Below are positions 28,854 to 29,173 of a DNA stretch of 64,000 nt, piece by piece. This DNA comes from a virus (taxonomy: Duplodnaviria > Caudoviricetes): positions 1 to 64,000 of IMG/VR virus record IMGVR_UViG_3300021255_002052; one strand, given 5' to 3'. The notes below the pieces were generated by a model. It worked only from the letters and a program-made list of their open reading frames with translations. It was not told the DNA's origin and did no database searches. How positions within the stretch are numbered: position 1 is the stretch's first letter; every line of letters begins with the position of its first letter. A program made the translations under genes and the position numbers.

Positions 28854-28927
28854 AGGTGGTACCTCCTTTCTCAGGTGCGTAGGGTCTAGTAGTGTCATGA
28901 TTACCCTACAATCTTCATGACACTATT

Positions 28928-28956
28928 ATTATAGAACTTAGGATAGGGAAAGACAA
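28928..28956 (-). promoter_or_regulatory. sigma-A promoter of peptide 28707-28853
   Basis: TTGTCT-17 nt-TATAAT on the minus strand. Confidence 0.7.
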
Positions 28957-28994
28957 CTAGGTCTAGTATTACTTATCGAGTAATAGCGTCAACC

Positions 28995-29096
28995 TTATCC
29001 TTCCAGCCGCTTAAGGATCATTGATATAACAATGACCTAAGCGATCGCGTAAGTGATAGGCGATACGACAGCAAACACTATAAAAGCTGTTTCCAT
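28995..29096 (-). CDS. 33-aa hydrophobic peptide paralog with a TAG codon
   Basis: AAGGAGGT SD; METAFIVFAVVSPITYAIA(TAG)VIVISMILKRLEG. Confidence 0.6.
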
Positions 29097-29173
29097 CTAA
29101 GTACCTCCTTTCTCTCGTGCGTAGGACAATGGTGGGACCTATCTCGACTACCTACAATCATCGAGATAAAAGT

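Follow-up and report, generated by a model that had tools for sequence, protein, structure and literature searches.

A candidate 5′ pseudoknot leader of putative toxin-like peptide mRNAs in a recoded phage

Structured leaders of small membrane-peptide mRNAs

In Escherichia coli, the processed mRNA of the type I toxin gene tisB (tisB/istR-1) carries a 5′ pseudoknot that is needed for ribosome loading (PMC7708055), and the translation-competent, unprocessed mRNA of the enterobacterial toxin gene timP (RyfA), whose antitoxin is TimR, contains a pseudoknot as well (PMC11228461, PMC13000454). In Firmicutes, mRNAs are stabilised by 5′-terminal stem-loops together with strong Shine-Dalgarno (SD) sequences, such as the STAB-SD word GAAAGGAGG of cryIIIA (reviewed in PMC3997798); a strong SD and an interaction between the 5′ and 3′ untranslated regions (UTRs) control decay of the hbs mRNA of Bacillus subtilis (PMC5737220), and 5′/3′ pairing within the mRNA has been described for icaR (PMC3868564). 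Here we describe two leaders from a phage (Duplodnaviria; Caudoviricetes), IMG/VR record IMGVR_UViG_3300021255_002052, of which positions 1 to 64,000 were analysed (the window). They belong to two tandem minus-strand cassettes, unit 2 upstream and unit 1 downstream, in which a hairpin (P1), a linker whose bases can pair with the hairpin loop (P2) and an extended SD precede a gene for a small membrane peptide. The leader represents a new sequence family, but its functional kind is known: the structured 5′ leaders of small toxin-like peptide mRNAs. Our preferred interpretation, to which we assign a probability of about one half, is that it would form an H-type pseudoknot at the mRNA 5′ end which, together with a maximal SD, may stabilise the mRNA and set the translation of a toxin-like peptide.

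Like tisB, the phage leader would have its H-type pseudoknot close to where the mRNA of a small membrane peptide begins, upstream of a single-stranded stretch and a structured ribosome-binding site. The two share no sequence similarity, however, and their hosts are enterobacterial in one case and probably Clostridia in the other. Moreover, tisB needs 5′ processing and an S1-dependent standby site ~100 nucleotides from the ribosome-binding site, whereas the phage pseudoknot would lie at the primary 5′ end, ~6 nucleotides from the SD, and no IstR-like antitoxin was found for it. As in timP, a hairpin loop would pair with a downstream segment; in timP, however, TimR targets the pseudoknot, which connects two stem-loops, whereas the phage leader has no known antisense partner, its predicted SD accessibility is independent of P2, and the sequences are unrelated. 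As in tisB and timP, a pseudoknot near the presumed 5′ end is supported by compensatory changes, which here come from natural covariation rather than from mutagenesis. The Firmicute stabilisers resemble the phage leader in having a hairpin at or near the presumed +1 and an SD containing GAAAGGAGG, and hbs resembles it in the 5′/3′-UTR interaction, which is predicted here for unit 1; these stabilisers are, however, simple hairpins or SD-like sites, and none has been described with a covarying loop-to-linker pseudoknot.

SPbeta-like prophages carry type I toxin-antitoxin cassettes, exemplified by bsrG/SR4 and yonT/SR6 of B. subtilis. These share with the phage cassettes small hydrophobic peptide genes with their own promoters, an SPbeta-type phage and structured mRNAs. 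They differ in that no 3′-overlapping antisense RNA gene was identified in the phage cassettes, and in that the phage peptides match no family and carry in-frame TAG sense codons.

The leader is compact, its structure is backed by covariation, and Rfam has no entry for it. It would carry a motif of enterobacterial chromosomes (tisB, timP), the 5′ pseudoknot of a toxin-like peptide mRNA, over to phages of gut Clostridia, with unrelated sequence; its reach is limited by the narrow distribution and the inferred function. A search with Rfam 15 models at E≤10 over positions 28600-29400 yielded nothing on the leaders, riboswitch and T-box models included, in agreement with an earlier note on this DNA that could assign them to no known class. 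At the gathering score, the whole window gave tRNAs and a group I intron only, and a theta/HDV-like ribozyme beside the suppressor tRNA described below was rejected, with no Rfam match on either strand.

Hairpin P1 and the loop-to-linker pairing P2

The leader was found in one small clade only, which comprises IMGVR_UViG_3300012007_000008 (G002, one cassette), four ENA contigs (L078-L081, two cassettes each) and two metagenome contigs, one a relative (L117) and one identical to the window (L102). The final alignment had 13 rows, nine of them distinct by the tool's count and eight when the L117 row, which is cut at its 5′ end, is excluded; these eight distinct leader sequences fall into three lineages (unit 1 type, unit 2 type and G002).

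The P1 hairpin is solidly supported by covariation. Six of its eight pairs change on both sides, 98.4% of its cells are paired (alignment A6), and none of 500 shuffles reached either its covariation score or its percentage of paired cells, while slid registers of the whole structure left 25-52% of cells paired. Four unrelated stem sequences, UGUCAUGA, UAUCUCGA, CGUUAUGA and CGUCACGG, all pair, which bears out the earlier note's statement that the stem covaries. Two double compensatory changes set unit 1 of the window apart from unit 1 of L078-L081 and L117, although the open reading frames (ORFs) of the ENA contigs share about 89% identity with that of the window. Two other functions of P1 were ruled out: a DNA operator palindrome, because the two units of one genome have unrelated stems and P2 contains G.U pairs, and an attenuator or terminator, because no U-tract follows P1.

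Read directly on the minus strand, to which all leader and cassette coordinates refer, both leaders carry the P1 hairpin, the loop word GATTGTAGG and the downstream word CCTACGCAC exactly as previously quoted. In leader 1, the -10 box TATAAT (28933-28928) is followed by the stem AGTGTCATGA / TCATGACACT (28924-28915 and 28900-28891) with the loop agattgtagggtaa, then by the downstream word ACCCTACGCAC (28885-28875) and by ctgaga-AAGGAGGT, which ends at 28861. Leader 2 has its -10 box TATAAT at 29179-29174, the stem TATCTCGA / TCGAGATA at 29168-29161 and 29147-29140 with the loop tgattgtaggtag, and the downstream word CCTACGCAC at 29125-29117, followed by gagaga-AAGGAGGT. Both 9-mers, GATTGTAGG and CCTACGCAC, have exact copies in these two leaders only, across the window and the 109,771-base record, and copies with one mismatch occur elsewhere in the window at chance frequency. 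Pairwise alignment showed that the two cassettes are tandem paralogs, so the words shared between their leaders are not independent evidence.

The RNA elements can be placed as follows. P1 of unit 2 (29140-29168; from sequence, fold and pair counts) pairs UAUCUCGA (29168-29161) with UCGAGAUA (29147-29140), giving 8 bp that begin 5 nucleotides after the -10 box. Within its 13-nucleotide loop (29160-29148), UGUAGG (29156-29151) is the 5′ strand of P2; the variable 14-nucleotide linker L3 (29139-29126) leads to the 3′ strand CCUACG (29125-29120) and an invariant CAC (29119-29117), and CCUACG-CAC (29117-29125) is followed by GAGAG and AAAGGAGGU. The extended SD AGAAAGGAGGU (29113-29103) and the ATG (29096-29094) complete the leader at 29094-29113. 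In unit 1, P1 (28890-28925) has the core UGUCAUGA (28922-28915) paired with UCAUGACA (28900-28893), and up to three extra pairs are possible at its base, for a hairpin of 10-11 bp in all. Its 14-nucleotide loop (28914-28901) contains the P2 5′ strand UGUAGGGU (28910-28903), and the 3′ strand ACCCUACG (28885-28878) with the invariant CAC (28877-28875) occupies 28875-28885; ACCCUACG-CAC is followed by CUGAG and AAAGGAGGU. The SD AGAAAGGAGGU (28871-28861) and the ATG (28853-28851) lie at 28851-28871.

Compensatory changes in the relatives support the pairing between loop and downstream word that the earlier note had proposed. It had also called both words invariant, which holds within this genome; in the relatives both words change and stay complementary. 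As aligned by the tools, 90.7% of P2 cells were paired and the failures were confined to G002. We interpret these failures as an artefact of gap placement, because the G002 loop has 13 nucleotides and that of the reference 14, and one loop gap in G002 was moved by hand before the final count. After this re-gapping, columns 26-63 to 31-58 were paired in 48 of 48 cells in the eight distinct sequences, and slid P2 registers left 12-34 of 53 cells paired versus 50 of 53 in register. G002 differs from the window in four P2 pairs, each changed on both sides: it has U.G, G-C, C-G, U-A, A-U and U-A (plus G-C) where the window has U.G, G-C, U-A, A-U, G-C and G-C. One-sided changes also keep the pairing, namely U.G to C-G (loop U to C) in the L078-type unit 1 and in a unit 2 variant from run X8, and U-A to U.G and U.G to U-A in unit 2 of L079 and L117 (CCUGCA). 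The P2 G.U pairs would be A.C mismatches on the plus strand, and the structure thus belongs to the mRNA. Compared with shuffled sequences, the loop/linker duplex is stronger than expected in unit 1 (8 bp, -12.5 kcal/mol, p about 0.01) and in G002 for its own duplex (p about 0.03).

Several points count against the pseudoknot. The P2 strands of G002 were out of register in the MAFFT or Infernal alignment. The unit 2 duplex (6 bp, one G.U) is at chance level compared with shuffles (p about 0.2-0.35), and its roughly -7 kcal/mol may not cover the pseudoknot penalty. There are just three independent lineages, and all four double changes come from one sequence, G002, and depend on gap placement. 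It is because these changes represent one lineage and a hand-moved gap that we rate P2 as probable and no higher.

The chance-level duplex of unit 2, and a P2 covariation that comes from one divergent sequence in a re-gapped alignment, would suit an explanation in which only the 5′ hairpin is functional, as an ordinary stabiliser before a strong SD, and the loop/linker match is fortuitous or a leftover that forms no pseudoknot in vivo. Nested folds of similar energy for unit 2 and for L078 unit 1 are in keeping with it, as are the one-sided changes, which are transitions and often preserve pairing by chance. It does not, however, sit well with the fully paired P2 columns of the eight sequences, since the neighbouring L1, L2 and L3 positions vary freely, L3 also in length (7-15 nucleotides). 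No variant breaks a core P2 pair, and G002 rebuilds a 7-bp helix from other bases at the same positions, where the p value of about 0.03, calculated for a helix anywhere, would be lower for fixed columns. We therefore regard a functional hairpin without a pseudoknot as unlikely.

The geometry of the proposed pseudoknot (P1 8 bp, L1 3-4 nucleotides, P2 6-8 bp, L2 3-4 nucleotides, L3 7-15 nucleotides) makes an H-type fold feasible, ending about 25 nucleotides before the AUG.

The Shine-Dalgarno region and the possible function of the leader

The extended SD AGAAAGGAGGU is invariant in the eight distinct leaders except for one G-to-U change in unit 1 of L081. We take it to be an 11-nucleotide perfect complement of the 16S rRNA 3′ tail, assuming a host tail of the B. 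subtilis type, and it contains the STAB-SD word GAAAGGAGG. Between P2 and AGAAAGGAGGU stand the invariant CAC and two variable bases (CAC-NN-G). The earlier note had placed the loop pairing next to the SD; the pairing is supported, but P2 does not touch the SD and ends 6 nucleotides before its 11-nucleotide extended form.

Upstream of the leaders lie promoter-like sites of the sigma-70/sigma-A type: TCGACA-17 nt-TATAAT in unit 2 (29174-29202), with 11 of 12 consensus matches and kept in the ENA relatives, and TTGTCT-17 nt-TATAAT in unit 1 (28928-28956), with 10 of 12. In all lineages P1 starts 5-7 nucleotides after the -10 box, and transcription would probably start about 6-7 nucleotides after this box, that is, essentially at the first base of the P1 core.

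Folding of five variants predicted, in each of them, pairing of the SD with a pyrimidine tract that lies ~36-45 nucleotides inside the ORF (codons 11-14). The 3′ end of unit 1 (28672-28711) consists of GGUAACCUUCCUCAG (28711-28697) and, after it, the hairpin and U-tract of an intrinsic terminator (28696-28672); GGUAACCUUCCUCAG can fold back onto CUGAGAAAGGAGGUACC at the SD, and the minimum-free-energy fold of unit 1 joins the 5′ and 3′ ends. This fold-back, which involves the last 15 nucleotides before the terminator, is significant (-21.4 kcal/mol, p = 0.006).

Based on these features, each cassette may be viewed as a self-contained unit with a host-type promoter and an amber-containing membrane-peptide gene, unit 1 with its own terminator. 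The mRNA would begin at P1, and 6-8 nucleotides of its 13-14-nucleotide loop would pair with the linker 7-15 nucleotides downstream. The pseudoknot and a ribosome held on the super-strong SD could seal the 5′ end against 5′-end-dependent nucleases, and we propose that such a sealed end, with almost no single-stranded RNA, would make the mRNA long-lived. The pseudoknot would also hold the upstream part of the leader in a single fold, and ribosome loading may then be decided by competing pairings of the SD, with the anti-SD tract of the ORF in all lineages and with the 3′-UTR fold-back in unit 1. The module would present a short single-stranded CAC-NN-G stretch together with the maximal SD, and the in-frame TAG codons would add a further gate at elongation. 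The stabilising and translation roles are thus suggested by analogy with the systems described above.

Other results speak less well for these roles. The fold-back is not significant for unit 2 (L078) or for G002, and the folds in which the SD is sequestered have z-scores of -0.1 to -1.9, without statistical support. Blocking the P2 bases left the predicted SD accessibility unchanged, so there is no evidence for an on/off switch driven by P2, and a P2-dependent SD switch was rejected on the basis of these predicted folds. No antitoxin was found for the putative toxin-like peptide. As to transcription, contigs from metatranscriptome libraries (Logan) of two studies include the stretch (in one study they cover 28669-29260, in the other they reach to 29272), but they give no strand, transcript starts or expression levels and may include DNA; the gap at 29273-29341 between RNA contigs was not counted as evidence. 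The RNA contig of run X3 has one end exactly at 28669. On the minus strand, this is where the U-tract of the unit 1 terminator has its last base; on the plus strand, the suppressor tRNA ends 12 nucleotides before it. A strandless contig fits either reading.

The pseudoknot might instead be an operator for a trans-acting regulator, an antitoxin-like antisense RNA or a protein, which would remodel the leader as TimR does on timP (PMC11228461). Candidate antisense RNAs are plus-strand read-through transcripts and the 3′ trailer of the convergent suppressor-tRNA precursor. The CAC and SD stretch, invariant even in G002, and the exposed hairpin loop would suit such a regulator, as would the orientation of the cassettes, which are antisense to the main phage transcription and convergent with the tRNA gene. 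The RNA contigs, which span the whole region and stop at 29260-29272, before a terminator-like plus-strand hairpin (29299-29325), point in the same direction, and the G002 cassette has, at its 3′ end, a weak site resembling an antisense promoter. However, no conserved antisense promoter was found inside the cassettes, the G002 cassette is not beside the tRNA, and a trans-encoded antisense RNA was rejected, since no complement longer than 13 nucleotides exists elsewhere in the 110-kb record, itself about 60% complete. A regulator common to all lineages would have needed to co-evolve with the loop, whose sequence is not kept in G002. We consider an operator improbable. The earlier note had offered a protein- or antitoxin-binding element as one option; neither an antitoxin RNA nor a binding protein was found, and the function is still inferred.

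The region in which the RNA contigs stop has structure of its own. A conserved 130-nucleotide spacer upstream of the tRNA-Asn gene (29203-29336, plus strand) contains two alternative hairpins, only one of which can form at a time; GTACGGC is common to both. The downstream one (29299-29317, with TTTGTTAAAA after it) resembles a terminator, and the RNA-library contigs of the two studies end at 29260-29272.

The other option in the earlier note was a riboswitch-like element, that is, a sensor of a small ligand or of a tRNA, for example of the suppressor-tRNA anticodon reading UAG inside P2. A compact H-type pseudoknot just upstream of an SD is indeed the architecture of the preQ1, SAM-II and guanidine-III riboswitches, and every lineage has a UAG:CUA duplex in the same columns as its P2 core, with the strands flipped in G002, an observation that is post hoc and may be due to chance (~0.16 for UAG anywhere in a 7-bp helix). 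Conserved unpaired pocket nucleotides, as expected of riboswitches in general, were not found: L1 (AGAU, UGAU, GGGU, GUA), L2 (GUAA, UAG, GUGA, UAA) and most P2 bases differ among the lineages. A tRNA sensor would lack a conserved second contact (UGGN), and L079 and L117 have CUG instead of CUA. Since no riboswitch or T-box model matched at E≤10, the loop bases are not conserved in G002, and the leader is confined to a small clade, before genes for membrane peptides rather than for metabolism or transport, we regard a ligand or tRNA sensor as very improbable.

A more specific and highly speculative version, in which we place little belief, is that the pseudoknot senses the phage's own code switch: the CUA anticodon of the suppressor tRNA, or the antisense trailer of its precursor, would compete for the UAG and remodel the leader. 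If this were true, one tRNA would license the peptide twice, at initiation via the leader and at elongation via the in-frame amber codons, and through this double licensing the production of a toxin- or holin-like peptide would coincide with late infection, the recoded phase.

Peptide genes, distribution and genome context

The phage record reads TAG as a sense codon. With this assignment, 47843-70357 becomes one open frame of 7,504 codons that includes 96 TAGs; nearly every plus-strand gene from 29435 on (up to 99 kb of the record, G000) has TAGs, and the genes upstream mostly have none, as in the gene at 21790-24549 (919 amino acids). The two peptide ORFs reach a TAG after codon 19, and standard gene callers miss them because their calls stop there. 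The earlier note was right that peptide genes follow the leaders; the length it assumed was too short, since with the in-frame TAG as a sense codon the peptides have about 48 amino acids.

The unit 1 ORF (28707-28853) encodes 48 amino acids with TAG codons at position 20 (28796-28794) and position 36 (28748-28746); its product has one hydrophobic helix and a basic C-terminal tail. The unit 2 ORF (28995-29096) has 19 amino acids up to its TAG (29039-29037) and 33 with TAG as sense. Compared with its 48-amino-acid orthologs (cluster P0002), it is frameshifted after MILK, has lost ~50 nucleotides of its 3′ end and lacks the terminator that the orthologs keep. Comparison with the relatives indicates purifying selection on the peptides and read-through of their TAG codons. 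The ENA orthologs are called as 48-amino-acid proteins with TAG as Q; G002 has a lysine codon at the position of the window's TAG and its own TAG elsewhere, which supports read-through; and the unit 1 ORFs of the window and L079 differ by 10 synonymous and 6 conservative changes, some of them beyond the first TAG. Small (<60 amino acids) hydrophobic membrane peptides with their own promoter, as here, are typical of type I toxin-antitoxin systems, and this resemblance suggests that the peptides are toxin-like. They matched no family in Pfam and PHROGs, and peptide profile searches (IMG/VR; 5.8 billion proteins; six-frame translations of 21 genomes; 1.84 billion representatives) returned cluster P0002 only.

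Two further features of the ORFs were observed. Each genome seems to carry one damaged copy, unit 2 in the window and unit 1 in L078, where a 7-nucleotide deletion (AGCTCAT) causes a frameshift (L078:3305-3380). All three lineages have a predicted ORF-internal hairpin directly after codon 20 (28771-28793 and 29014-29036, minus strand; L040 ~1582-1604), with the sequence UCAUUG...CAAUGA and, in G002, UGAUCGUCU...AGAUGAUCA; it may be an RNA element or may simply follow from the conserved [VL]IV..MI codons.

Searches beyond the clade yielded no further leaders. A covariance model (R1) run on 20 related phage genomes and two prophage loci found G002 only, and BLAST of the cassettes against the related genomes and INPHARED phages gave only matches of tRNA or SD size. 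An exact-word scan of IMG/VR for GATTGTAGG...CCTACGCAC returned 13 matches, all by chance and in unrelated contexts. Scanning IMG/VR and the JGI/ENA metagenome contigs for GCACNNGAGAAAGGAGGT(A) recovered G002, L102 and L117 as real matches and ~60 others by chance. An architecture scan of IMG/VR (TATAAT-N50-68-AGAAAGGAGGT) gave at least 109 matches, and none among the matches listed combined a hairpin, loop/linker pairing and a small hydrophobic ORF. One unrelated phage contig, L181 (IMGVR_UViG_3300035498_000760), has an analogous layout at 398-560 (plus strand), with TATAAT, a 12-bp hairpin, AGAAAGGAGGT and a 26-amino-acid hydrophobic peptide (MNTMETLTLLLVIFTILTYFDNHHKK), but its loop/linker match is just 5 bp.

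Genomes that are closest in their YonG-like protein, at 73% identity or less, have no cassettes at the same site, and the cassettes thus behave as accessory inserts. In the window they sit between an amber-suppressor tRNA gene (anticodon CUA; 28566-28657, plus strand), which is convergent with unit 1, and the late operon. The first late gene with TAG codons (YonG-like, from 29435) comes after a tRNA-Asn gene (29337-29410, plus strand). The split in TAG usage and the positions of the tRNA genes indicate that the cassettes are antisense inserts at the boundary of the standard-code and recoded regions, and this position beside a suppressor tRNA makes the leader a handy entry point for studying the timing of membrane-active peptides in recoded phages. 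The flanks hold an HU-like gene (YonN) and the YonG-like gene, followed by a large gene with only faint homing-endonuclease matches; the order of YonG, YonJ and the HU-like gene is the same as in SPbeta/phi3T. Related prophages occur in Ruminococcus sp. AM36-2AA and in a metagenome-assembled Clostridia genome, and the host is probably a Clostridia bacterium. The stretch occurs in sequencing runs from animal-gut metagenomes; several of these carry the label bovine gut.

Two other elements were noticed in the recoded region. A third, unrelated antisense cassette at 34325-34560 (minus strand) contains TGTATAAT, GGGGAGGTG and a gene for a 25-amino-acid hydrophobic peptide ending at a TAG; its leader is different and without the P1/P2 motif. 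The group I intron (Rfam RF00028, 61.9 bits) lies at 37366-37735 on the plus strand, in the region of the structural genes.

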